64,000 bases of DNA from an uncultured Thermoanaerobaculia bacterium (GCA_964560325.1 CAZLLV010000561.1:486-64485), one strand, 5' to 3'. Positions 3,548-50,572 are shown, counted from the first letter of the stretch. Notes: a model not told the origin generated them from the letters alone. Program-made: numbers and translations.

Positions 3548-3688
3548 TCCCCTTGTCATCCCGAGCGAGAGCGAGGGATCTGGGGGCGAGGGGGACGCGA
3601 TTCAGGAGCGAGCTTGCCGAGATCGTGCCGTATACCGCGCCACCCCCCGCCCAGGTCCTTCGCTCTCGCTCAGGATGACAGGGGAGTC
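3548..3688. repeat. imperfect long inverted repeat (about 32-nt arms, about 70-nt spacer) between convergent genes
   Basis: Arm 1, cccttgtcatcccgagcgagagcgagggatctg, is the reverse complement of arm 2, caggtccttcgctctcgctcaggatgacagggg, with about 28 of 32 positions matching. The second arm overlaps the 3' end of ccmF. Confidence 0.5.
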
Positions 3689-5961
3689 TGCGATGGGTCC
3701 GGCGTCGGCCGCATCGCCTGGCGCAGGCGGTTGAAGATCGCGAGCGCGCCGCCGGCCAGCACCACGTAGAGCCCGAGCCAGACGAGCTGGATCAGCGGCT
3801 TCTCGGTCACGTCGATCGACAGCGTCGGCGGCGTGCCCTCGGTCGAGAGCCCCGGCGCGCCCTCGACCGCCAGCCGGACCAGCCCGTCGCGCGGAGAGAG
3901 GCCCGCCACCCGCACCGTGCCCCCGGCCGGCAGAGCCGCGGGCGGAGTCGAAACCATCCCGCGCGCCTGGTCGATCTCGTAGAGCGGCAGCACCGTACCG
4001 TCGCCACCCGCCGGGCCCCGCACGTCGAGCTGCACGCCGAGCGTCACGTTGCCCCCGGCCGCCATCTGGGTGAGCGCGTCACCGCCACCCACGCCGAGGT
4101 CGAAGCCGGCGAAGCGGAGCTGATAGTCGCCCACGTCCATCGACTGCCCCTGCCGCAGCTCGACCAGCTTGCCGGCGTCCGCCGGCTCGCCCGGGTCGTA
4201 CTGGAGCGGCGAGACGTAGAAGTCCGCGAGCGGCGTCGTCCGCACGTGCGGGTTCATCATGAGCTGGCCCGACCGCTCGTTGCGGAAGAAGCGCGGGTAG
4301 GAGCGGAAGGTCTTCCCGTCCGCCTCCTCGACGTCGATCACCAGCGTGTCCTTGTCGCGCGGGGAGGTCTTCTCCAGGAAGCCGACGAAGGTGAGCGTCC
4401 GGTCGCCGACCTGGCGGGGCTGATCGAGGGCGAGCGAAACCTTGGTGCTCTGATCGTAGCCGCCGGAGGCGACGAAGCCGAGGAGCATGACGCCGACGCC
4501 GACGTGCGACAGGTACCCGCCGGCCGCCTGCAGACCCTGCAGCCGCGCCTTGGCGATCACCTTGTGGAGGTTCGCCACCAGCGCCGCAAGCGCCAGGAAG
4601 ACGTAGAGGACGTGGAACGGGTCGCGCACCGCGACGATCGCCGCGGCGCTCGTCAGCACGGCGGCGACGGCGAGCGACGGTGCCAGCTTGCGGAACAGCT
4701 TGCCGAGGCTCTCCTCGCCGCGCCAGGTCAGGTACGGCACGACCGACAGGAGCAGCGCGAGCAGGATCGCGATCGGCAGGTTCACCCGGTTGTAGAACTC
4801 CGGCCCCACCTGCCCCGGGTTCTCCATGAACGCGGTCAGCAGCGGCGCCGAGGTGCCGAAGGTGATGACCAGCGCCGAGGCGAAGACGGTGATCGTCGAC
4901 AGCACCACCGCCGTGCCGCGGGAGAACAGCGGGTCCTCGTTCGGCCGGGTCTCGACGCTCCGGAGCCGGGTGGCGAGCAGCACGACCGAGCCGATGCCGA
5001 AGAACGCCATCATGCCGATCAGCCAGCCCGAGATCCCGAGGTCGACGAAGCTGTGGACCGAGAAGTCGGCCAGCACGCCGGAGCGGGTCAGGAAGGTGCC
5101 GTAGAGAACCGCCACGAAGACCAGCGTGGCGAGCACGTAGTTGACCCGCCGGTACCGGTTGCGGGTTCGCTCGAGGTACAGGCCGTGGATCAGGATGGTG
5201 CCGAAGAGCCACGGGATGAGCGAGGCGTTCTCGACCGGGTCCCAGCCCCAGAAGCCGCCCCAGCCGAGCGTCTTGTAGGCCCAGTAGCCGCCCATCAGGA
5301 TGGCGAGCCCGAGGACCATGAAGCCGCCGAGCGCCCAGGGGAACGCCCGGCGCGCCCAGCCCTCGGAGTCCTTGCGCCAAAGCGCCGCCATGGCGAAGGC
5401 GAACGGCACGGCGGCCGACGCGTAGCCGATGAACATGATCGGCGGGTGGATCACCATCCAGTCGTCCTGGAGGAGCGGGTTCAGGCCCTTGCCGTCGAGC
5501 GGCGTCTCCCCGAGCATCACGAAGGGGCTCTCGCGCACCAGGATGAAGAGCAGGCCGATCGTCGTCAGCAGGTAGACGATCATCACCGTCGGCTCCTGCC
5601 GCCGGCCGGTCGTGCGGTAGAGGAGCACCCCGATCAGCACCGCCCAGAAGAGCCAGATCAGAAAGCTCCCCTTCTGGCCGGCCCAGAAGGCCGCGAACTG
5701 GTAGTGGATGGGCAGATCCAGGCCGGAGTACTGGTAGACGTACTCGATCCGGAAGTCCCGCGTGACGAGGGCGAAGCCGAGGACGACGGCCGCCATCACG
5801 ACCGAGAGGGCGTAGCAGTTGTAGGCGCGCCGCGCGAATCGGACGGCGCCGCCGTCGCCGCGGAGCACCAGCGAGTAGCCCCAGAGCGAGGTGAGAGCGA
5901 AGAGGAGCGCGCACCACATGGCGAGCGCCCCCGGCAGGTAGAGGCTGTTCAGGTACTCCAT
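3670..5961 (-). CDS. ccmF: cytochrome c-type biogenesis protein CcmF (heme lyase subunit)
   Basis: 763 aa polytopic membrane protein with the CcmF/NrfE WGGxWxWDPVEN tryptophan-rich motif (WGGFWGWDPVENASL) and conserved His residues. Confidence 0.9.
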   Translation of the reverse strand: MEYLNSLYLPGALAMWCALLFALTSLWGYSLVLRGDGGAVRFARRAYNCYALSVVMAAVVLGFALVTRDFRIEYVYQYSGLDLPIHYQFAAFWAGQKGSFLIWLFWAVLIGVLLYRTTGRRQEPTVMIVYLLTTIGLLFILVRESPFVMLGETPLDGKGLNPLLQDDWMVIHPPIMFIGYASAAVPFAFAMAALWRKDSEGWARRAFPWALGGFMVLGLAILMGGYWAYKTLGWGGFWGWDPVENASLIPWLFGTILIHGLYLERTRNRYRRVNYVLATLVFVAVLYGTFLTRSGVLADFSVHSFVDLGISGWLIGMMAFFGIGSVVLLATRLRSVETRPNEDPLFSRGTAVVLSTITVFASALVITFGTSAPLLTAFMENPGQVGPEFYNRVNLPIAILLALLLSVVPYLTWRGEESLGKLFRKLAPSLAVAAVLTSAAAIVAVRDPFHVLYVFLALAALVANLHKVIAKARLQGLQAAGGYLSHVGVGVMLLGFVASGGYDQSTKVSLALDQPRQVGDRTLTFVGFLEKTSPRDKDTLVIDVEEADGKTFRSYPRFFRNERSGQLMMNPHVRTTPLADFYVSPLQYDPGEPADAGKLVELRQGQSMDVGDYQLRFAGFDLGVGGGDALTQMAAGGNVTLGVQLDVRGPAGGDGTVLPLYEIDQARGMVSTPPAALPAGGTVRVAGLSPRDGLVRLAVEGAPGLSTEGTPPTLSIDVTEKPLIQLVWLGLYVVLAGGALAIFNRLRQAMRPTPDPSQTPLSS

Positions 5962-5980
5962 CAGGTCGGCGATCCGGCTC

Positions 5981-6391
5981 CTAGCCGTACGACTTCGTTT
6001 CGGTCGCGCCCTCTTCGAGACCCTGGTACTTGCTCGGGCACTTGACCAGCAGCTTCTCGGCCTCGAAGGCGCCCGCGTCGGCTGAGTAGCGGCCGATCGC
6101 CACGATCGAGACGGCGTCCTCGAAGTTGGCCGGCTTCAGGCCCTCGTAGCGCACCGGCAGGGTGTCGCCGCTCTCCTCGTCGACCAGCTCGAAGTGGAGC
6201 GCGTGGCTGGTGTCGTCGTACGATGAGCTGCCCTGGCCGAGCCCGCCCGCGACCTGCACCACGCGCTCGGTCGTGCGCGCCTGCTCGAACGGCACGTACG
6301 GCGTCAAGGACTGCTGGAACGAGGCGAGCGCGAAGCCCGAGAAGGCCAGCACGAGCACGCTGCCCAGGATGTAGAGGTGGCTCTTTTTCAT
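5981..6391 (-). CDS. ccmE: cytochrome c maturation heme chaperone CcmE, variant with CxxxY in place of HxxxY
   Basis: N-terminal TM anchor followed by an OB-fold region. The heme-binding position reads LLVKCPSKY, a CxxxY motif. The ATG overlaps the ccmD stop and is preceded by a GGAG RBS. Confidence 0.85.
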   Translation of the reverse strand: MKKSHLYILGSVLVLAFSGFALASFQQSLTPYVPFEQARTTERVVQVAGGLGQGSSSYDDTSHALHFELVDEESGDTLPVRYEGLKPANFEDAVSIVAIGRYSADAGAFEAEKLLVKCPSKYQGLEEGATETKSYG

Positions 6392-7368: not shown

Positions 7369-8055
7369 TCAAGGGTTCCAGATGACCGGGAAGAGCATCA
7401 GCCCCGCCACGGTCAGGGTGGCATCGTACAGGACCAGAGCCTGCATCTCCTCTCCCGGCGGCTCGCCGGCGACCGCCGCGCGGGTGAGCTGGACGGCGAA
7501 GAAGAGCCCGGGCACCAGCACGGGTAGCAGGAGGACCGCGAAGAGCGCGCTCTTGCTGCGCGCTTGCGCCACCATCGCCGCCACCAGGGTGCTGCCCGCG
7601 GCGAGGCCGTAGCCGCCCGCCGCGAGCGCCGCCACCAGCAGGAGCGGCCGGCGCGCCTCGAGCTGGACCATCGCCAGGAAGAGCGGCGTGATCAGCGCCT
7701 CCAGCAGCAGCACGACGGTCAGCCCGTAGAGGAGCTTGCCGGCGAAGAGCGCCGACGGCGTGGCCGCGAGCCGCAGGGCGGTGGCGGTGTGAGTCTCCTC
7801 CTCGGCCACGAAGATCCGCGGCAGACCCGCGGTGACGGCGAACAGCACGATCAGCCAGAGGACGACGGGCAGCACCGTGACCGCGATCTGCGGCACGGTG
7901 CCGAGCGAGCCGAGCACCAGGCTCACCACCACGAGCGTGGTGAAGGCGAACAGGCCGAGGGTGTTCAAGGCATAGCGGGTGCGGTACTCGCACCGCCAGT
8001 CCTTGACGAAGACCGCCGCGGCCTCAGCCGCCCAGCGCGAGGCGCGACCGGACAT
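7369..8055 (-). CDS. ccmB: heme exporter ABC permease CcmB
   Basis: 228 aa, six TM helices, located between ccmA and ccmC. Starts MSGRASRW at 8055. Confidence 0.8.
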   Translation of the reverse strand: MSGRASRWAAEAAAVFVKDWRCEYRTRYALNTLGLFAFTTLVVVSLVLGSLGTVPQIAVTVLPVVLWLIVLFAVTAGLPRIFVAEEETHTATALRLAATPSALFAGKLLYGLTVVLLLEALITPLFLAMVQLEARRPLLLVAALAAGGYGLAAGSTLVAAMVAQARSKSALFAVLLLPVLVPGLFFAVQLTRAAVAGEPPGEEMQALVLYDATLTVAGLMLFPVIWNP

Positions 8056-8668
8056 TCGGGATCTCCAGTGGACCGGGGTTGGCGACGACGGCGAGACCGC
8101 CGCCTTCGAGGTGGCGCGCGAGCAGCTCGGTCCCCTGGTCGATGCCGGGGCGGTCGAGGTTCTGGAACGGCTCGTCGAGGAGCAGCAGACGGGGCCGCGC
8201 GAGGAGCGCCCAGGTCCACCGCAGGCGCTGGCGCATGCCGGACGAGAGCGCCCCCGCCGGCCGGTCGTGGGGGAGACCGACCAGGTCGAGCAGCTCGCCG
8301 GCGCGCGACTCCGGCACATCGCGGAGGCGGCAGAAGAAGCGAAGGTTCTCGAGCGTCGTCAGCTCCTCGTAGAGAGCGAGGTCGGGCGCCACGAAGCCGA
8401 CCGCTCGCCGGCGCGCCGCGATGTCGAGCGCCACGCCGTCCTCGCGGTACTCCACCGTGCCGCGCTCCGGGGCGAGCAGCCCGGCGAGCACGCGCAGCAG
8501 CGTCGACTTGCCCGAGCCGTTCGAACCGACCACCAAAAGCGCCTCCCCCGGTCCCACTTCGCCCGACACCCCCGTCAGCACGTGAAGCGGCCCGAACCTG
8601 CGGTGCAGGTCGTCGAAGAGCAGGTGAGCGGACGCATCGGCGGAGGGCACGGGCCGGGAGCGTAGCAA
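8024..8668 (-). CDS. ccmA: heme exporter ATP-binding protein CcmA
   Basis: Walker A GSNGSGKST, ABC signature LSSGMRQR and Walker B LLLLDEP. Overlaps the ccmB start. Confidence 0.85.
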   Translation of the reverse strand: MLRSRPVPSADASAHLLFDDLHRRFGPLHVLTGVSGEVGPGEALLVVGSNGSGKSTLLRVLAGLLAPERGTVEYREDGVALDIAARRRAVGFVAPDLALYEELTTLENLRFFCRLRDVPESRAGELLDLVGLPHDRPAGALSSGMRQRLRWTWALLARPRLLLLDEPFQNLDRPGIDQGTELLARHLEGGGLAVVANPGPLEIPNVRSRLALGG

Positions 8669-8690
8669 AGCGGCTCGGCCGGAGGCGTCT

Positions 8691-8978
8691 TCAGGCGGCC
8701 GAGAGAGGGCGCACCTTCAGACTGCCGCGCTTCTTCTCGGCCTGCCAGAGGTCGTACTGGATCTGCTGAGCGAGCCAGCTCTCGGCTGTGGTGTCGAACG
8801 CCACGGAGAGCCGCACCGCCATCTCGGGGCTGATGCCGGCGCGGCCGTTGAGGATCGCGGAGAGGGTCTTGCGGCTCACGTCGAGCGCGCGGGCGGCCTC
8901 GGTCACGGTCAGGCCGAGCGGCTCCAGGCAGAGCTCGCGCAGGACCTCGCCGGGATGCGGTGGATCGTGCATCTGCAT
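8691..8978 (-). CDS. higA: HigA-family antitoxin (XRE-type HTH)
   Basis: 95 aa: [50 protein letters not shown]...YDLW. Lies immediately downstream of the toxin gene. Confidence 0.8.
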
Positions 8979-38200: not shown

Positions 38201-39597
38201 ATCGCCCCTCCCAGGCTCGCGGGGCCGCGGCGCCGGATCCAGAGCGCGAGGAGGATCGCGACGGTCGCGAGGCCGGCGGCGAGCCCCCACCAGATCCCGA
38301 CCAGTCCGGCGCCGACCCGGAAGCCGAGCCACCAGGCGAGCGGCAGCGCGATGCCGTAGAAGCCGATCAGCATGATGAGGGCCGCGGGCACCGTCCGGCC
38401 CATCCCGCGTAGCACGCCGGAGCCCACCACCTGGGCGCCGTCGGCGACCTGGAAGGCGGCGACGATCGGCAGGATCGCGGCGCACAGCGCCACCACCGCA
38501 GGGTCGTCGGTGAAGAGCTCGGAGAGCGGCCGCCGTCCGAGCGTGAGCCCGACCGCGGCGACCGCCATCACCCCGCAGCCGAGGGCGAGCGACACCCACG
38601 CCGCCCGCTGCGCGCCCGGGAAATCCCGCGCGCCGAGGAGGTTGCCGACCCGCGTCACCGCGGCGAACGAGATGCCGAGCGGGATCATGAAGGTCCAGGA
38701 CGAGATCGCGACCACGATCGAGTGAGCGGCGAGCGGCCCGGGACCGAGCCAGCCGGCCCAGATCATCGACAGGCTGAACGCCCAGTACTCGAGGCCCATC
38801 TGCAATCCGACCGGCGCCCCCAGGCCGAGCAGGCGGCCGATCGAGGGGAGGTGGAACGACTCCCGGCTCCACCCTCTCCAGACGCTCTCCTCGCCCAGAA
38901 GGCGCGCGGCGAGCGCGAGGAAGGCGAACATGTAGACCATCGAGATCGAGGTGGCGAGCCCGGCGCCCACGACCCCGAGCGGCGGCGAGCCGAGGTGGCC
39001 GAAGATGAAGACCCAGTTGGCGGCCACGTTGATGGCGTTGGCGGAGAGCGTCGCCCACATCACCGGCTTCATCCGGCCCTGCGCCTGGAGCCAGTGGCGC
39101 AGCACCACGTAGCCGAAGAAGGCGGGCAGCCCGACGATCTGGACCAGGGCGTAGCGGTGCGCCTCGGCCGAGAGGTGCGGGTCCTGACCCAGGCTCACGA
39201 GACCGGGGCCGGTGGAGACCACGATCAGGCAGAGGAGCGGTGTCACGAGCGCCGCCGACACCAGCCCCCGCTGACCGGAGAGGACGAGCCCGCGGCGGTC
39301 GCCGGCGCCGTACGCCTGCGCCGCCACCGGGTCGAGGCCGAGGAGAAGGCCCATCACCACGATCGAGGTGCCGATCAGCCAGAGCCGGCCGAGGGAGGCG
39401 GCGTCGAGCGCCTCGACGCTCACCTGGCCGAGCATGAGCATGTCGACCACCCACAGCGTCATGGCCCCGACCTGCGCCGTCACCAGGGGCGCGGCGAGCC
39501 GGGTCAGCCGACGGACCTCGAACGAGACCGGTTTCACGGGAGATCGGGGAGGAGCCGGAGCGAAGGAGCCTGCCTGCAAGAGCTGCCACGGTAGCAC
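38197..39597 (-). CDS. MATE family efflux transporter (start uncertain; alternative GTG at 39537)
   Basis: Twelve TM helices with MATE duplications. Confidence 0.8.
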   Translation of the reverse strand: MLPWQLLQAGSFAPAPPRSPVKPVSFEVRRLTRLAAPLVTAQVGAMTLWVVDMLMLGQVSVEALDAASLGRLWLIGTSIVVMGLLLGLDPVAAQAYGAGDRRGLVLSGQRGLVSAALVTPLLCLIVVSTGPGLVSLGQDPHLSAEAHRYALVQIVGLPAFFGYVVLRHWLQAQGRMKPVMWATLSANAINVAANWVFIFGHLGSPPLGVVGAGLATSISMVYMFAFLALAARLLGEESVWRGWSRESFHLPSIGRLLGLGAPVGLQMGLEYWAFSLSMIWAGWLGPGPLAAHSIVVAISSWTFMIPLGISFAAVTRVGNLLGARDFPGAQRAAWVSLALGCGVMAVAAVGLTLGRRPLSELFTDDPAVVALCAAILPIVAAFQVADGAQVVGSGVLRGMGRTVPAALIMLIGFYGIALPLAWWLGFRVGAGLVGIWWGLAAGLATVAILLALWIRRRGPASLGGAI

Positions 39598-39608
39598 GAT
39601 CGAGCGCG

Positions 39609-41228
39609 GTGGCGCCGGCCGTCGCGCCGTGCGGTAGCCTTCCCACTCGCATGACCTCGTCCGACCCTCCCTCGCCCGCCCCCGGGAAGCCTTCGGCCCG
39701 CCGGTGGCGGCGCTTGCCGGCGGTACTCGCCTGGTTGGCCCTGCTGGCAGGACTCGCCGCGGTCGACGGCTTCTGGATCGAGCCCCGCCTCCTCCTCGGC
39801 CGTGAGCGGTTCGAGGTCGACCTGGTGCCGGGGCGCTACCGGGTCGTCCACCTCTCCGATCTCCACGTCCTGCCGCAGCGGCGTCTCTACGACCGGTTGC
39901 TCCGCCGCGTCGCCGCCGAGGAGCCCGACCTGATCCTGGTGAGCGGCGACCTGGTGGCGGACGCCCCCAGTGCCGAGCTCCTCCAGGAACGGGCGCGTGA
40001 CGCCGCGCGCTGGATCTCGCGCCTGCGGCCGGTCGCCCCCGTGCTCGCCGTCCAGGGGCACTCCGAGTACCTGGGCGAGGTGATCTCGATCCTGGCGGAC
40101 GCGGGAGTCGAGTGGGTTTCGAACGAGGGACGGTCGATCGGTCCCGGCGGGGAGGGGATCCTCCTCCTCGGGCTCAACCAGCAGGTCGGCCTCGACGCCG
40201 ACCGGGTGGCGCCGCCGGTCTTCTCCCTCGGCTCGCTCGAGGCGGGCGGCGAGACGCTCCTCCTCGCCCGCTCCGAGCTCCGCAGGAACCGCTACCTGAG
40301 CTACGACCCGAAGCCGCGCCGGGCGGGCGACCTGGCGCGGGAAGGCGGCCCCTTCGCCTGGAGCGGCTACGACGCGTCCGTGTCACTGCGGGTCGAGGAC
40401 GCTACGAGCGGCGCCGGGCTCGCCGTCCACAGCCGCTACGCGGTGGGCGAGAACCGCGCGATTCGGCTGGCGCGGGCGAAGGGGTGGCCGGGCGACACCG
40501 GTCATTTCGCCCTCACCTTCGACGGCAGCGCGCCCGAGACGGAAGAGGGAGAGGGCCGGCTCAACCGACTGGACACGGGCGTTTCGCCGGAGCCCGGGCG
40601 CTGGTACCGGTTGCGCCTGGTGACCGAGGTCCTTCCCGACCGGCTCGAAGTCCGCGGGCGCGTCTGGCCGGAAGGGGAGGAGGAGCCGGACGAGTGGCAG
40701 GCTTGGGCGGTCGACCGTTCGGTGCGCCGGGTCGAGCGGGGAACGGTGGCGCTCTGGACCTGGGGCGAAGGGACCACGGCCTACCGGGATCTGCGAGTGG
40801 TCGAGGACGGCCGGACGCTCCTCGACGCACCGCTCGGCGGGACGACGACCGCCGGCGGGTCGGAGCTGCCCGCCGGCTTCCTCGACGGCGCGCGGGCCAC
40901 CCGCCTCGCCCTGGCGCTCGCGCGCAGCCCGGAGGTGCCGCCGGGAACGCCGCGGGTGGTCTTGACCCACACGCCCGGGCCGGTGGTCGAGGCGGCCGAG
41001 CGGGATGTGCGGCTGGTCCTCGCCGGCCACACCCACGGCGGCCAGGTCCGCCTGCCCTTCTTCGGTGCGCTCGTCACCCGCTCGGAGATCGGCCGCCGCT
41101 ACGACCGGGGGCTCTTCGACTGGCCGGACGGCGCGGACACTCTGCTCTACGTCAACGCCGGGGTCGGCACCTCGATCCTGCCGGTGCGCTTCTTCGACCC
41201 GCCGGTCTACGCCGTCTTCGACTTCTGA
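39609..41228 (+). CDS. membrane-anchored metallophosphoesterase with an inserted domain of about 230 aa (start possibly 39651)
   Basis: Motifs RVVHLSDLH, LVSGDLVAD, QGHSE and LAGHTHGGQVRLP. A large non-homologous insertion lies between motifs III and IV. Confidence 0.7.
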   Translation: MAPAVAPCGSLPTRMTSSDPPSPAPGKPSARRWRRLPAVLAWLALLAGLAAVDGFWIEPRLLLGRERFEVDLVPGRYRVVHLSDLHVLPQRRLYDRLLRRVAAEEPDLILVSGDLVADAPSAELLQERARDAARWISRLRPVAPVLAVQGHSEYLGEVISILADAGVEWVSNEGRSIGPGGEGILLLGLNQQVGLDADRVAPPVFSLGSLEAGGETLLLARSELRRNRYLSYDPKPRRAGDLAREGGPFAWSGYDASVSLRVEDATSGAGLAVHSRYAVGENRAIRLARAKGWPGDTGHFALTFDGSAPETEEGEGRLNRLDTGVSPEPGRWYRLRLVTEVLPDRLEVRGRVWPEGEEEPDEWQAWAVDRSVRRVERGTVALWTWGEGTTAYRDLRVVEDGRTLLDAPLGGTTTAGGSELPAGFLDGARATRLALALARSPEVPPGTPRVVLTHTPGPVVEAAERDVRLVLAGHTHGGQVRLPFFGALVTRSEIGRRYDRGLFDWPDGADTLLYVNAGVGTSILPVRFFDPPVYAVFDF

Positions 41229-43234: not shown

Positions 43235-43471
43235 GTGCCGACCGTCTTGAGGGTTGGGCCGTACCGGGCCTTCTTCTTCGCCGGGGATCGCGGCGAGCCG
43301 ATCCACGTTCATGTCGAGCGTGATCAAGGAATGGCCAAATTCTGGCTACAGCCGGTCCGGCTGGCGAAAAGCCGCGGATTCGGCAGTGCCGAGCTCAACA
43401 GAATCAGCAAGATCGTGGAGGAGAACCAGGAGCGATTCCGGGAGGCATGGAATGACTATTTTGAAAGCTGA
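43235..43471 (+). CDS. DUF4160 domain protein
   Basis: 78 aa: MPTVLRVGPYRAFFFAGDRGEPIHVHVERDQGMAKFWL matches the DUF4160 signature. Local GC is about 57%, against about 72% in the flanks. Confidence 0.7.
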   Translation: MPTVLRVGPYRAFFFAGDRGEPIHVHVERDQGMAKFWLQPVRLAKSRGFGSAELNRISKIVEENQERFREAWNDYFES

Positions 43472-43748
43472 GCCTCGCTTGGCGGATGTGGTGACGGTGA
43501 CCGTAACGGATGACGATCTGGTCGCGGATCTGAGCGATGGCCGGAAGATTTCCGTGCCGCTTTCCTGGTATCCACGGCTCGCCGACGCGACCGCTGAGGA
43601 GCGCGGCAACTGGCGATTGATAGGTCACGGAGAAGGAGTTCACTGGCCGGACCTGGACGAGGACATCAGCGCCGCAAACCTTGTTTTCGGGCAGCCCTCG
43701 GGAGAGAGCCAAGCGTCACTTGACCGCTGGCGCAGGAGCCGTGGGTAG
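43452..43748 (+). CDS. DUF2442 domain protein
   Basis: MTILKAEPRLADVVTVTVTDDDLVADLSDGRKISVPLSWYPRL. Overlaps the end of the DUF4160 gene, the canonical paired arrangement. Confidence 0.7.
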   Translation: MTILKAEPRLADVVTVTVTDDDLVADLSDGRKISVPLSWYPRLADATAEERGNWRLIGHGEGVHWPDLDEDISAANLVFGQPSGESQASLDRWRRSRG

Positions 43749-43850: not shown

Positions 43851-44099
43851 ATGGCTCTGGACCAGAAGCTGGCACAGACGCTCCGCGCCAAGAACGGCGC
43901 GGAGCGGATGCAGATCGCCTTCGGCATGTTCCGGGCTGTTCGCCGGATGATCGAGAGCCGGCTCCGGGAGGAGCACCCGGAGTGGGACGACGAGGCGCTC
44001 CGGGGAGCCGTGGCCCGGTGCATCGCGGAGTATCCCGACGAGCGGAAGTGGGCCGTGTGGGTGACGCCTCGGAGCTCGGGCTCGGCCGGGACTCTTTGA
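43851..44099 (+). CDS. hypothetical small protein (82 aa)
   Basis: ORF with host-like GC3, preceded by an AT-rich promoter-like stretch containing TTTACA. No recognizable domain. Confidence 0.35.
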   Translation: MALDQKLAQTLRAKNGAERMQIAFGMFRAVRRMIESRLREEHPEWDDEALRGAVARCIAEYPDERKWAVWVTPRSSGSAGTL

Positions 44100-44117: not shown

Positions 44118-46133
44118 CTACCCCAGCTCCTTCAGGATAGCGTCCGCGGCCTTGAGCGCCAGCGCCGCCAGAGTCAGGGTGGGATTCGCCGTCGTGATCG
44201 TCGGGTAGTTGCCGCTGCCGACCATGAACAGGTTGGGGTGGTCCCAGGAGCGTTGGTCGGCGTCGAGCACGCTGTCCGAGGCGCTGGTGCCCATGACCGT
44301 CGTGCCCACGACGTGGCCGGAGCCGAAGTACTGGAAGCCTTTCGGCACCCCGTTCGCCGACTGGGGCAGGTTGGTGACCTCCGGGGTCTTGAGCTCCGGC
44401 GGCAGGTCTTCGAAGATCTTGCGCCACTCCGGCTTCAGCGGGAACCACTTCGGGTTCGCGACCAGCTCGCCGTCCGCCCCTTGCACCTCGGCGACGTTCT
44501 GGACGTAGCTCCGCACACCCATCCGCTGGTAGACCTGGCGGGCGAAGATCTCGGCGTAGACGAAGCCGAGCTTGGTGTAGTCCGACAGGTCGTAGTGGAT
44601 CACCGGACGGGGCAGGCCCAGCCCGTCGGTGAGGCTCCCGCCGCCTTCGAGGTCGGTCGAGAGGGTGACCCGGTTCGACCGTTCGGCCGACTGCTCCACC
44701 AGGAAGCCCATCCGCCACTGGCGGGTGAAGGCGTCGTTGAGCTTCGCCACCAGCGCGTCGCCGAAGAGCTGCTGCCCGTTCGGGTTGAGCTGGCTCGCGT
44801 TCGTGCCGTTCACGAAGTCGCCGACGGTGGTCCACGGATCGCCGATCGAGAAGTTCCAGCCCTCGTTGCCGATCTCGACCCGCCACGCCGCCCGTTCGGA
44901 GCGGAACGGCCCGTCGCGCAGCGTCTCGATGCCGCTGGTCGAGAGCGGGCCGCGGAAGCCCCAGGCCGGCTGAGGGAAGAGCGACCAGGTGAGGTAGAGC
45001 GGGTGATCCATCAGGTTCCGGCCGACCATGTCGGAGGAGTTGGCGACGCCGTTCTCGAGGCCGGCCTGATCGCCCCGCCGGGACATGAGGAGGAGCTTCG
45101 GGGTCTCGATGGCGTGGGCCGCGAGGACGTAGAGGGTGCCGGTGGCGGTCGCCTCGGTCTTGGTGATCGTGCCGCCGTCCTGCTGCCACTTCAGGTACTC
45201 GATCCCGGTCACGGCGCCGTTCTCGCCCACCACCACACGGGTCGCGACCGCCTGCGGGATCACCGTGGCGCCCGCCTGCTTCGCCTCCGACAGGGTGACG
45301 GTACCGTCGTACTTGGCCTGGATCGGGCAGATCGGGATGCAGTTGGTGTTGCCGGCGCAGGTGCGGCGGCTGTCGAAGGGCTGGCTGTTGCGCCCCTGGG
45401 GCGTCGGTGTGACCTTCGATGCCTGGTCCGGGGGGAACCCGACGTAGCCGGTCACGCCGTCGACGCTCGCCGCCACCGCGTCGTCGACCAGCGTGAGCGG
45501 GATCTCCTGCATCGGGTACTGGTAGTCCTTCGGCTCGTACTCGAGACCGATCGAGCCGAGGTCCTGCTCCTGGACCCGCGCATCCGCCGCCACGCCGATC
45601 GACTCCTCGGCCCGGTCGTAGTAGGGCAGCAGCGCGTCGACCCCGAACGGCCAGTCCCGCTCCACGCCGTAGACGCTCTCCATCTCGAAGTCGTGCTCGA
45701 GGAAGCGGAGGCTGGTGCCGAGCCAGTGCCAGGTGGTGCCGCCGGCCACCCTCTCGTAGGTGCTGGCGAAGGGGTGCGGACCCTTCTGGAGGAGGTAGCT
45801 CTTCGTCGGGTCGTAGATGAAGGCGGTCGGGTCGGTCTTCACCTTCTCCGGCCAGCCGGGCTCGACGTTCGAGCCGAAGGTGGCGAAGATGGTGGCGCGC
45901 GGCGTCGCCTCCTCGAACGGGTTCGAGCCTTCGAGGGGCGGGTAGGGGCTCTCCGGCGTCTTCGCCGAGGCGAGGAAGAAGTTCTCCAGGTAGGCCTCGC
46001 GGTTCGTGGGGGGCGTCTCCGGCCCGGCTTCGAGGATCAACACGCTCTTGCCCGCCTTGGCGAGCTCGCGCGCGACCAGGGTGCCGCCGATGCCGGCGCC
46101 GACGATGACGACGTCGTAGTGCGTGCCGCTCAC
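44118..46133 (-). CDS. GMC-family FAD-dependent oxidoreductase
   Basis: N-terminal DVVIVGAGIGGTLVARELAKAG FAD motif and GMC C-terminal domain. The GTG start overlaps the upstream gene's stop (GTGA). Confidence 0.9.
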   Translation of the reverse strand: MSGTHYDVVIVGAGIGGTLVARELAKAGKSVLILEAGPETPPTNREAYLENFFLASAKTPESPYPPLEGSNPFEEATPRATIFATFGSNVEPGWPEKVKTDPTAFIYDPTKSYLLQKGPHPFASTYERVAGGTTWHWLGTSLRFLEHDFEMESVYGVERDWPFGVDALLPYYDRAEESIGVAADARVQEQDLGSIGLEYEPKDYQYPMQEIPLTLVDDAVAASVDGVTGYVGFPPDQASKVTPTPQGRNSQPFDSRRTCAGNTNCIPICPIQAKYDGTVTLSEAKQAGATVIPQAVATRVVVGENGAVTGIEYLKWQQDGGTITKTEATATGTLYVLAAHAIETPKLLLMSRRGDQAGLENGVANSSDMVGRNLMDHPLYLTWSLFPQPAWGFRGPLSTSGIETLRDGPFRSERAAWRVEIGNEGWNFSIGDPWTTVGDFVNGTNASQLNPNGQQLFGDALVAKLNDAFTRQWRMGFLVEQSAERSNRVTLSTDLEGGGSLTDGLGLPRPVIHYDLSDYTKLGFVYAEIFARQVYQRMGVRSYVQNVAEVQGADGELVANPKWFPLKPEWRKIFEDLPPELKTPEVTNLPQSANGVPKGFQYFGSGHVVGTTVMGTSASDSVLDADQRSWDHPNLFMVGSGNYPTITTANPTLTLAALALKAADAILKELG

Positions 46134-46828
46134 GACCGGCCCCCTTCTTCGGTAGCCGCGGTCTCCGGGGCGGCGGCGAAGTCGGACGGGCTCCGTCCCC
46201 CCTTGCCCTGCCCCAGCACAGAGAGGGCCGGCCGTAGCGGCGCGGCGTCGATCGTCTCGGCCGCGGCGGCGGTTCGCAGCGACGGTGGCGACTGTGGCGA
46301 GGGCGGCGGGTTGCCGGTGAAGTCGGAGAGCGGCGGCGGCTCCTTCGTCCAGTAGCCGTAGGTCCAGGGGCTGTAGCCCATGGCGTGGCTCTGCATCACC
46401 TGCCAGGCGAGCCCGCGGATGTACGCCTGGTCGCTGACGACCGACTCGAAGGCGCCCGGCTCGATCGGGTACCAGTACCCCAAGTACCAGAGCCGCATCA
46501 CCGAGCGCGCGGCGGCGGCCCGCGCCTCGCTCCCTGAGGAGCTGCCGGGGTCGAGGAGCTGCTCGCCGATCGTCCGGCGCTCCTCGGCGCTCATCTCGGA
46601 GACCGGCTTGCCGCCGGCGATCTCCTGGGCGAGCTTCGCGTACAGGGCGAGGAGGTCGTCGAAGGCCGCGCCCGCGCCCTGCTGCGCGGCGTCGAACAGC
46701 GTCTGCTTCAGGTTCACCGGGTCGAGGCTGGGGGCGATGGTGCCGGCGGCGAAGCCGGTGAGGAGCGCCGACATCTGCACGAAGTCGTCCATCGCCGACG
46801 AGCCGCCGGTCGGGGTGGGATCGCTCAT
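46130..46828 (-). CDS. hypothetical protein, possible small partner subunit of the GMC oxidoreductase
   Basis: 232 aa, aromatic-rich (WYLGYWY, SPWTYGYW). Translationally coupled on both sides. Weak resemblance in size and position to gluconate 2-dehydrogenase subunit 3-family proteins, but it has no Tat signal. Confidence 0.45.
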   Translation of the reverse strand: MSDPTPTGGSSAMDDFVQMSALLTGFAAGTIAPSLDPVNLKQTLFDAAQQGAGAAFDDLLALYAKLAQEIAGGKPVSEMSAEERRTIGEQLLDPGSSSGSEARAAAARSVMRLWYLGYWYPIEPGAFESVVSDQAYIRGLAWQVMQSHAMGYSPWTYGYWTKEPPPLSDFTGNPPPSPQSPPSLRTAAAAETIDAAPLRPALSVLGQGKGGRSPSDFAAAPETAATEEGGRS

Positions 46829-48315
46829 CACTGGGCCCTTTCGAGGAGGTAGGTGAAGTCGGAGAAGCTCTCCTGCCCCTCGGCCATGGTGGCGTTCAGG
46901 TGGCAGTGCGTGCAGCTCGACGAGGCTTGGGGCACGGTGCCCTGGATGTAGGTCTCGAGCGTGGTGTTGCCCAGGAACGCGGGCGCCGGCCTGCCGGTTT
47001 CGTCCACCGGGTTCAGCGGCTTGCACCAGTTGTTGGCCGCCGACGGCGCGGTCGGGTCGGAGCCGCTCGCGTCGGTCGGCCACTGGGTCGAGATCAGCTC
47101 GTAGTGCTGCCAGACGGTGCCGCCGAGGAGGCCCTGGACCTTCGCGTTCAGATCCTTCGTGGCGGCGGTGATCGGGATCTGCCGCACCACCTGGCTCTTG
47201 CCGGCGTTCGAGGTCACCGGCTGGAGGTGCGGGTCCCAGGGCTGGGGCGGCGGCTCGTTGACGGCGTTGCAGTCGTCGCAGCCGACCTGGTAGAAGCTGT
47301 AGCTCCCCGGCTCGGTCTCGTGCCCCCGGGTGGGCACGTTGTCGACCTGCTCGAAGGTCGCCCAGAGCCACTGCGGGTCGTTCTGGGTCTTGGTCACCAG
47401 GTGGAGGCCGACCAGCCCGAGGAGTCGCCGGTCGCAGGTCGTCGGGCCTTCGCCGGTGGCGGGGGTCAGCACCAGGGCGTCGGTCTTGTGGAAGCGGGAG
47501 GGATCGTCCCCGGCGGCGGGGTCGAGCACCTTCCAGGCGCTCTTGACCATGATCGCGCCCTGCTGGCCGTCCTCGGGGCAGGTCTCGCCGTTCGGGTCGC
47601 CGTCGCAGCCGCAAGGGAACTCGACCCTTTTGCCGGCGGCCGCGAAGGCCGCCTGGCCGGCGCGGCTGTAGAGATCGTTGTCCCGGATGTACTGGTACAT
47701 CGGCCGGTTGACGGTGATCCCGAAGCGGGCGTAGTGGCCGTTCACGTCGATCAGCGGGCCCGACTCGAACGGCTCGAGCGCGGCCTCGAAGACGATCGGC
47801 TGCTTGCCCACCTGGACGAAGACCCGCTCGCCCGCCTCGCCCTGGCCTTCGCAGGCGGGCGGGAGCGGGGCGTGGGGCGGCGGCTGGCCAGCGGGCCAGT
47901 CGGGAGGCTCGGCGCCGCCCGCGAGGAACAGGTCCCCCTCGTTCGGCCAGCTCTCCCAGAGGGTCACGTTGTCGCCGTCCCGGTCGCCGAAGCCGCCGGA
48001 GGGGCTGTGGGAGAGGGCGAGGAAGCTGTTCCAGGAGAAGACGTCGAAGTCGCACTGGAGACTGTCGAGCGTGATCGTCTGCTGGAACGTCGGGGTCTTG
48101 GGGAGATCGGTCCCCACGGTCACCGGCTGGGGCGTTCCGCCGCAGACGACGTCGACGGAGGAGGATGGGGTGCCGCTCAGCTCCGCCATCGGCTCCTCCG
48201 GCCGGACTCCGGGGTCCGCGGGGCCGGCGGTCCGGCCACAGCTCACCGCGAGCACCAGCAGCGCGGCGAGCACCGCGGTACCGGTCGAGCCCGCACGCCG
48301 AAACGGCTCTCTCAT
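46828..48315 (-). CDS. Cys-rich lipoprotein with a single C-terminal CXXCH heme c-binding motif
   Basis: Lipobox LAVSCG and about 15 Cys. The only heme motif is SSCTHCH, 20 residues from the C-terminus. First gene of the GMC operon. Confidence 0.55.
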   Translation of the reverse strand: MREPFRRAGSTGTAVLAALLVLAVSCGRTAGPADPGVRPEEPMAELSGTPSSSVDVVCGGTPQPVTVGTDLPKTPTFQQTITLDSLQCDFDVFSWNSFLALSHSPSGGFGDRDGDNVTLWESWPNEGDLFLAGGAEPPDWPAGQPPPHAPLPPACEGQGEAGERVFVQVGKQPIVFEAALEPFESGPLIDVNGHYARFGITVNRPMYQYIRDNDLYSRAGQAAFAAAGKRVEFPCGCDGDPNGETCPEDGQQGAIMVKSAWKVLDPAAGDDPSRFHKTDALVLTPATGEGPTTCDRRLLGLVGLHLVTKTQNDPQWLWATFEQVDNVPTRGHETEPGSYSFYQVGCDDCNAVNEPPPQPWDPHLQPVTSNAGKSQVVRQIPITAATKDLNAKVQGLLGGTVWQHYELISTQWPTDASGSDPTAPSAANNWCKPLNPVDETGRPAPAFLGNTTLETYIQGTVPQASSSCTHCHLNATMAEGQESFSDFTYLLERAQ

Positions 48316-48383: not shown

Positions 48384-50348
<1,965 letters not shown>

Positions 50349-50572
50349 CGGGGATCTCTCTAGGGTGCGTCGGAGGTGCGTAGCGGTGGAGACGAGGGAA
50401 CGGGCCCGGGGCCATGACTCCAACCGGCCGCCGGGGGCGCTGTATTTCGGCCCGGAGCCAGTGAGCCGTCCAGAGGCCGGATCACTGGAGTCGATCTTGC
50501 ACGAAGTGGGGGCCGATCGAGCCGCTCACGACTCGACCGCGTGCCGAGGCGTCGTTTCGTCCTCGCTCCCCG

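Follow-up and report, generated by a model that had tools for sequence, protein, structure and literature searches.

The locus described here raises the question of whether three overlapping genes of an uncultured Thermoanaerobaculia bacterium encode a single electron-transferring enzyme complex and, if they do, how a flavoprotein and a small subunit that carry no export signal would meet a haem protein that does. The genes, here called A, B and C, lie within a 64,000-nucleotide stretch (GCA_964560325.1 CAZLLV010000561.1:486-64485; the window, meaning the whole stretch analysed). A sequence-only reading of this DNA had likened them to the membrane-associated flavin adenine dinucleotide (FAD) sugar or alcohol dehydrogenase complexes, a resemblance borne out by the homology of both C and B. 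By a modest measure, we judge it probable that A, B and C form a three-subunit respiratory-type dehydrogenase of the FAD-dependent glucose dehydrogenase (FAD-GDH), fructose dehydrogenase and sorbitol dehydrogenase kind, with a swapped electron acceptor and with A as the direct partner of B-C.

The catalytic part of the proposed complex is C, which contains the Pfam domains GMC_oxred_N and GMC_oxred_C and is homologous to the alpha subunit of the Burkholderia cepacia FAD-GDH (BcGDH; 6a2u_B, E 1e-98) and to Gluconobacter fructose dehydrogenase (7w2j_A, E 6e-73). In BcGDH, His105 binds FAD covalently, Cys212, Cys218 and Cys222 ligate a 3Fe-4S cluster at the surface, from which electrons go to the cytochrome subunit, and Cys213 of alpha is disulfide-bonded to Cys152 of gamma (PMC6719666). 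Residue-level alignment of C with BcGDH pairs RRTCAGNTNCIPICPIQAKYDG with RPTCCGNNNCMPICPIGAMYNG, the cluster ligands being spaced C-x5-C-x3-C, and the equivalents of the FAD-binding histidine, the cluster cysteines and the active-site histidine are without variation across the C family (Table 1). Position 260 of C is alanine in 70 of 72 homologues and B contains no cysteine, so no inter-subunit disulfide is expected. As C begins directly with its FAD-binding motif, it has no signal peptide. Judged from its sequence, C is the alpha subunit of an enzyme of the FAD-GDH class, with predicted cofactors and without the inter-subunit disulfide. Pseudomonas homologues of C reach ~740-752 residues (loci L016 7705-9963, L031, L035, L059, L063 and L090 6495-8717), the extra length being a conserved C-terminal extension of ~120-130 residues (…VQANQAWQGTGVQV…GELQLCINDD…) with no Pfam match; a PA-IL/LecA-like lectin domain, entertained for this extension, was dropped, as Pfam gave no confirmation.

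For B, the relationship is more remote. PF12318, the small subunit of FAD-sorbitol dehydrogenase, is matched by 19 of 31 B homologues from related loci (best E 3e-6), the window B taken alone staying below threshold in Pfam (E 0.79). A PDB search with a profile of B homologues returned the BcGDH gamma subunit (6a2u_A) as its only match, weak but colinear, through the motifs LDTFMTLSESLTG, ILEAWYLGI and PGFWADKP. On this homology, B is a divergent gamma ('hitchhiker') subunit, a remote homologue in PF12318; in BcGDH, gamma packs over the 3Fe-4S cluster and stabilises alpha. Aromatic residues account for 8.6% of B, with 14 of them within residues 100-170, and residues ~175-232 (46130-46310, minus strand) form a tail rich in proline, alanine and serine (…LGQGKGGRSPSDF…) that is confined to the Thermoanaerobaculia-like subclade of the window (B of 215-249 residues), B having ~165 residues elsewhere.

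The three genes are kept together across at least eight phyla. Scanning one genome of each species with a pattern gave 317 loci with a relative of A, and in all of the best 80, which were fetched, B and C follow directly downstream of A in identical order and orientation, with the 4-nucleotide overlap between B and C retained in most. The sequence-only reading had made its case depend on such co-conservation, and it holds at every locus of this set. The hosts comprise Acidobacteriota including Thermoanaerobaculia, Gamma- and Alphaproteobacteria (Pseudomonas, Lysobacter, Tahibacter, Gilvimarinus, Cellvibrio, Pseudoalteromonas, Azospirillum, Skermanella and Acidisphaera), Planctomycetota (Planctomycetales), Verrucomicrobiota (Opitutaceae and Akkermansia-like Verrucomicrobia), Bacteroidota/Rhodothermales and Cyanobacteria (Symploca). 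Reciprocal look-ups that started at homologues of B or at a closely related A led back to the same triad. Neither a conserved fourth gene (anchor, transporter or regulator) nor a conserved nearby gene for a tri-haem cytochrome was found in the 80 loci, the best other cluster occurring in ~10-20 of them and including shadow open reading frames (ORFs). The conserved unit is the three genes only. The closest relatives are Thermoanaerobaculia metagenome-assembled genomes (72-74% identity in A, 77% in C), whose flanks are syntenic with the window; contexts vary between loci, one related locus adjoining genes for LacI, alpha-amylase and a HAD-phosphatase. Public annotation names the proteins 'cytochrome C', 'sorbitol dehydrogenase', 'GMC family oxidoreductase' or 'hypothetical', and literature searches on PF12318, on P460 together with GMC and on these annotation names found no description of the triad, which apparently is undescribed so far.

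The putative acceptor, A, has no match by sequence or profile in Pfam, NCBIfam or the PDB, and belongs to a large family, with more than 800 clusters of relatives at 90% identity; an exhaustive profile search gave 4,094 representatives (at 50% identity) at E<=1e-3 and 1,187 at E<=1e-30. Its N-terminus reads MREPFRRAGSTGTAVLAALLVLAVS followed by a cysteine (C26), and hydropathy rises above 1.6 in this signal and nowhere else in the three proteins, no other stretch reaching membrane-helix strength. A lipobox, called by a simple pattern search and not by a trained predictor, is present in at least 71 of 118 A homologues, the others having ordinary Sec signals; a motif resembling a twin-arginine translocation (Tat) signal occurs in one. 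The cysteines and histidine of the CxxCH (C468, C471 and H472) and a further cysteine, C294, are invariant in the 118 homologues, and C155 nearly so. Among the 148 best A representatives the CxxCH is found in 137, the other 11 being fragments, frameshifts or, in a single case, CxxxCH. According to the sequence-only reading, A was a Cys-rich lipoprotein with about 15 cysteines and a lone CXXCH 20 residues from its end, not a tri-haem cytochrome, and the motif would seem incidental if orthologues lacked it. Orthologues keep it; the lone CXXCH stands, as does the distinction from tri-haem cytochromes, since A has one invariant CxxCH and no cytochrome c Pfam domain. The counts need correction to 13 cysteines and 23 residues, and Cys-richness describes the subclade of the window and not the family, the cysteines beyond C155, C294, C468 and C471 being subclade-specific. 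We regard A as a one-haem-c protein with predicted haem attachment, which is probably exported and in most members lipid-anchored through its Sec/lipoprotein signal.

That the CxxCH instead serves as a metal-binding or redox-disulfide motif, making A a non-haem accessory protein, strikes us as highly improbable. Such a role would agree with the lack of any Pfam cytochrome domain above threshold in A and with the lowest confidence of its structural model falling on the surrounding segment. It is countered by the invariance of both cysteines and the histidine, by the lone variant having CxxxCH, which is a known haem-c spacing, by the export of all A members, and by the placement of the motif at the C-terminal end of a predicted beta-sheet domain, as in the P460 and c'-beta cytochromes. 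The same reading had held that a variant cytochrome c maturation (Ccm) system nearby could mature the haem protein. Genes of Ccm system I are indeed present (CcmF 3670-6135, CcmB 7369-8358 and the CcmA ABC ATPase 8024-8716, all on the minus strand), which means that the organism is able to make c-type haem and says no more; at ~38 kb from the operon they are unlinked to it and were set aside as a part of the three-gene system.

The likeness to P460 and c'-beta rests on structure prediction combined with weak profile matches. AlphaFold models of A reached a predicted local distance difference test (pLDDT) score of 63.5 with 24 sequences and of 84.8, with a predicted template-modelling score (pTM) of 0.85, with 118 sequences. 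In the model, a five-stranded sheet (255-263, 277-284, 293-308, 317-323 and 405-413) is accompanied by the CxxCH on a short helix close to the C-terminus, and pLDDT is lowest (62-78) about residues 450-490. Foldseek searches of both models against the PDB gave nothing significant. The commonest sub-threshold Pfam match among A homologues is PF16694 (Cytochrome_P460), seen weakly in 5 of 24, with a best score of 15.5 bits (E 0.024) against a gathering threshold of 27 and none for the window A; these alignments place profile positions ~101-125 of 125 on the CxxCH segment. By sequence, A does not belong to PF16694. According to a 2025 review (PMC11928373), the fold is confined to the P460 and c'-beta families, which are both small and consist of ligand-binding, mostly dimeric proteins with a mono-His haem. 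We consider it likely that A has a P460/c'-beta-like haem domain within a much larger protein, and is not a class-I cytochrome. Invariance is dense on the predicted sheet (K258, W261, H305, K309, W316, W318, E322, Y405, Q411 and W412), and K258, K309 and H305 are mere candidates for a haem-lysine cross-link or for haem coordination.

More distant A-like proteins (28-30% identity) retain the CxxCH and an H-x3-K-T...W-x-T-F-E motif and adjoin other redox enzymes, each of the following contexts being a single example. On plasmid 1 of Paracoccus denitrificans PD1222 (L082, NC_008688.1 122096-135004), an A-like protein of 502 residues with a Sec signal and CTACH comes after a signal-less tyrosinase-family protein and a 577-residue protein without Pfam match; on Methylobacterium indicum pVL1_1 (L085 199-6083), an A-like gene adjoins that of a 1419-residue fused 2Fe-2S/FAD/molybdopterin enzyme of the xanthine-dehydrogenase type, and on Bradyrhizobium barranii pBb323S2c (L084 4845-11102) those of LodA_N and ferritin-like/BNR proteins. 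Two metagenomic proteins are fusions. P0416 (740 residues) joins a signal and an A-like domain to a class-I cytochrome c and has two further CxxCH sites, one of them within a Cytochrome_CBB3/Cytochrom_C match at residues 617-704; in P0380, a single chain carries a Sec signal, then an A-like domain and then a tyrosinase. The fusions indicate that the A-like domain and its redox partner share a compartment and are probably in contact, and that the domain can be wired to ordinary cytochrome c. Separately, genes of three kinds recur in the A-like regions of rhizobial plasmids (metallophosphoesterase, phospholipase-D-like and CHAT), and a metallophosphoesterase is also encoded in the window (39438-41228).

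The fold also bears on what the haem would do. The trimer could be a self-contained periplasmic oxidoreductase, in which a five-coordinate P460-type haem in A reduces a small oxidant (O2, H2O2, NO or similar) with the electrons that C takes from its substrate and bypasses the respiratory chain. We think this improbable, even if the predicted fold of A matches only ligand-binding mono-His haem proteins, its densely invariant sheet residues suggest a structured pocket, and neither a quinone-site or membrane region nor a second relay haem is present. The invariant His305 or another residue could provide a sixth ligand and give a low-spin electron-transfer haem, and the fusion of P0416 to ordinary cytochrome c domains fits a relay better. 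Export of B-C would pose the same problem here as for a respiratory complex.

That problem is the lack of a Tat signal on the small subunit, which the sequence-only reading had noticed for this one protein and which extends to the whole family. No Tat signal was found on B in the window or in the 80 related loci, where upstream coding room for a signal is also absent, and a simple Tat pattern search found none in 52 database homologues from the clade of the window. In the BcGDH gamma subunit, the first colinear motif comes directly after the Tat signal (at about residue 53 of the 168-residue precursor); in the window and the 80 loci, B starts 5-25 residues ahead of that motif. At many loci there is no open B frame ahead of the stop codon of A, so no signal is hidden upstream. 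A was rejected as the Tat carrier for the complex, with RR in just 27 of 118 N-termini and a Tat-like motif as rare as stated above.

A sister clade supplies the missing element. On plasmid pBq66S1MBa of Bradyrhizobium quebecense (HU230_RS41585-41595), genes for a 230-residue protein and for a GMC protein with RRACAGNTSCIPICP come after an A-like gene, whose product has a Sec signal and SSCIACH and was matched by tblastn at 33% identity. The small protein scores above the PF12318 threshold and starts with ...GSFSRRAMLAGTAATTAAVAVAPISGSAYA, a classic Tat signal, followed by AGPD; it has 731 database relatives, mainly in Bradyrhizobium and Xanthobacteraceae, and S-R-R is invariant in an alignment of 14 sister sequences. 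Two more sister loci hold the same triad, in which identity to the window proteins is 38% for the A-like protein and 42% for C. Profile alignment of the two B clades with hhalign (probability 99.85, E 9e-31) matches window B 11-165 to sister 59-215, which leaves the clade of the window short of exactly the signal peptide; of 120 sister sequences, 114 show the simple Tat pattern, as against 0 of 52 from the window clade. Because both the canonical gamma subunits and the sister clade carry the signal, loss in the clade of the window is the parsimonious interpretation. With a Tat-bearing gamma, an alpha and an A-like protein, all three sister subunits would meet in the periplasm. Sister clade and fusions hence favour a physical partnership of A with B-C, and the clean, clade-wide loss of Tat argues that something else changed too.

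An alternative that gives full weight to the missing signal is a split topology, which we regard as rather unlikely. B-C would remain cytoplasmic, perhaps on the inner side of the membrane, and deliver electrons from 3Fe-4S to a quinone or a cytoplasmic acceptor. A would act separately on a related small molecule outside the cytoplasm, for example as a peroxidase, as a c'-beta-like ligand binder or upon a compound from which the B-C substrate derives or which arises from it; what links the genes would then be the pathway and not direct electron transfer. This account takes the proteins as encoded, with B and C signal-less throughout the 80 loci and 52 homologues, a Sec/lipoprotein signal on A, no membrane-spanning component and no conserved extra gene; P460-fold proteins bind ligands, and c'-beta of N. 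europaea has peroxidase-like activity. Distant A-like genes beside signal-less redox enzymes (the P. denitrificans tyrosinase and the Methylobacterium xanthine-dehydrogenase-type enzyme) would fit as well, but rest on one example each. It leaves unaccounted for, however, that the ligands of 3Fe-4S, a cluster known for passing electrons to a cytochrome subunit, do not vary, that the sister clade exports gamma-alpha to the compartment of its A-like protein, that fusions join an A-like domain and its partner in one chain, and that strict A-B-C order with translational coupling across phyla is typical of the subunits of one complex.

For the three-subunit dehydrogenase, we propose the following course of electron transfer. 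The substrate of C would be a sugar, a polyol or a glycoside-like compound, oxidised at a hydroxyl group; the relatives of C are glucose, fructose and sorbitol dehydrogenases. Electrons may then pass from the substrate to FAD, on to 3Fe-4S and to the haem of A, from where they would probably be delivered to a soluble periplasmic carrier or terminal oxidase, or alternatively to a small oxidant at the haem if this is five-coordinate. As A has no second haem, membrane helix or detectable quinone-site region, ubiquinone reduction in the manner of the tri-haem beta subunit is not expected. Several observations weigh against the proposal. Neither B nor C has an export signal or room for one, the signal of A is of the Sec type and not Tat, and no membrane helix exists beyond it; as encoded, the exported A and the signal-less B-C would be on opposite sides of the membrane. 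Moreover, known P460/c'-beta proteins bind ligands and are not electron carriers (PMC11928373). With Tat lost in the window clade, the proposed electron transfer requires that B-C come to A by a route that the operon does not reveal. FAD and Fe-S insertion into B-C is cytoplasmic. The pair might ride on a Tat substrate encoded elsewhere, use another route, or stay inside with an indirect link to A. In a wider and more speculative view, which we consider unlikely, A-type proteins would constitute a large, so far unrecognised third branch of the P460/c'-beta fold, acting as dedicated haem partners of varied exported oxidoreductases (GMC/3Fe-4S dehydrogenases and tyrosinases), with the folded gamma-alpha pair of the window clade reaching A without a Tat signal, by a new export or coupling route.

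The layout of the operon is given in Table 1. All three ORFs lie where the sequence-only reading had placed them, with overlapping junctions on the minus strand. In a window of ~72% G+C, the third-position GC of the frames argues that all three are coding. Of the ATGA or GTGA that the same reading had given for each junction, GTGA is present at B/C and ATGA at neither; A/B has GTGATG (CAGTGATGAGC), where the overlap is 1 nucleotide (TGATG) with the ATG start of B and 4 nucleotides (GTGA) with an in-frame GTG one codon upstream. Three other gene models were discarded. A long alternative-frame ORF over gene A (46130-48055, minus strand, 641 residues) is a shadow of the B frame; A-B read-through, or a longer B from an upstream start, conflicts with the many loci that open the B frame only after the A stop; and P0019, a seeming natural A-B fusion, is a frameshifted database sequence running from A into the shadow frame of B.

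Table 1. Coordinates of the A-B-C operon and its predicted functional elements in the window
Feature	Position	Strand	Remark
Gene A	46828-48315	minus	495-residue predicted exported haem-c lipoprotein; third-position GC 0.94
Gene B	46130-46828	minus	232 residues from ATG; gamma-like small subunit; third-position GC 0.95
Gene C	44118-46133	minus	671-residue GMC-fold predicted catalytic (alpha) subunit; third-position GC 0.86
A/B junction, GTGATG	46826-46831	minus	stop of A overlaps start of B
B/C junction, GTGA	46130-46133	minus	4-nucleotide overlap; recurrent in most related loci
Signal peptide of A, lipobox-like LAVS/C26 end	48238-48315	minus	translation MREPFRRAGSTGTAVLAALLVLAVSC
CTHCH, predicted haem-c motif of A (C468, C471, H472)	46900-46914	minus	residues 468-472 of 495; 23 residues past His
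FAD-binding Rossmann motif of C, DVVIVGAGIGG	46083-46115	minus	N-terminal
His136 of C (GGTTWHW)	45726-45728	minus	aligns to covalent-FAD His105 of BcGDH; invariant in 72 sequences
CAGNTNCIPIC of C, predicted 3Fe-4S ligands C259/C265/C269	45327-45359	minus	aligns to C212/C218/C222 of BcGDH; invariant, n=72
His607 of C, conserved GMC active-site His (GSGHVVGT)	44313-44315	minus	aligns to NNHITGST of BcGDH; invariant, n=72

On the same strand, 68 nucleotides upstream of A, lies a gene for an ABC-F type ATPase (48384-50423, minus); the arrangement recurs in an 81%-identical relative (L095 5971-7908) and is not kept in the wider family. Converging on C from directly downstream are genes for a DUF2442 protein (43254-43748, plus) and an Rv0078B-related antitoxin (43851-44099, plus), which together resemble a small toxin-antitoxin pair; near the operon of L095, a PSK/PIN pair is found instead.

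FAD dehydrogenase complexes underlie direct-electron-transfer biosensors for glucose and fructose and are a classic example of Tat hitchhiking. A form of them that occurs widely in nature and has another acceptor, with one haem, would represent a new electron-transfer module for study and engineering, and if a ~450-residue relative of P460/c'-beta is built into dehydrogenase and tyrosinase systems, the fold has more uses than are known so far. The Tat-bearing sister clade and the Tat-less main clade, built from the same genes, may likewise be viewed as a natural experiment on the export of a cofactor-loaded enzyme.

In conclusion, the operon can be compared with four known or related systems. 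With BcGDH (gamma-alpha-beta; PDB 6A2U, 8HDD and 8GRJ) it shares an alpha subunit homologous over its full length, including the covalent-FAD histidine, the cysteine triad and the active-site histidine, a gamma-homologous small subunit and the adjacency of three genes. It differs in the gene order, which here is acceptor-small-large, in a gamma subunit without Tat signal, in the absence of the Cys213/Cys152-type disulfide, in an alpha subunit that is ~125 residues longer and, above all, in the acceptor, as BcGDH beta is membrane-bound with three haems c and its place here is taken by an unrelated 495-residue lipoprotein with one predicted haem. Gluconobacter FdhSCL (PDB 7W2J) and SldSLC likewise share the homologous large subunit, the PF12318 small subunit and the flavin to 3Fe-4S to haem logic, but have Tat-signal small subunits and a tri-haem cytochrome c that reduces ubiquinone, and the window operon has neither. 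It therefore has the alpha and gamma subunits of this class and lacks Tat on gamma and the tri-haem membrane cytochrome, and is not a strict member. The P460 and c'-beta cytochromes (PDB 2JE3, 6AMG, 6HIU, 7S5O and 8BRK) resemble A in the beta-sheet core predicted for it, in the single C-terminal CxxCH and in being exported; they are stand-alone, mostly dimeric proteins of 135-160 residues, whereas A, which scores under the Pfam threshold, is enlarged to ~450 residues by insertions and a long additional N-terminal half, and sits as a subunit gene in a dehydrogenase operon. The sister operon of Bradyrhizobium and Xanthobacteraceae, finally, shares the gene order of A-like, small subunit and GMC protein, the CxxCH with a Sec signal and the cysteine triad of C, and differs in that its small subunit keeps the canonical Tat signal that the clade of the window is without.

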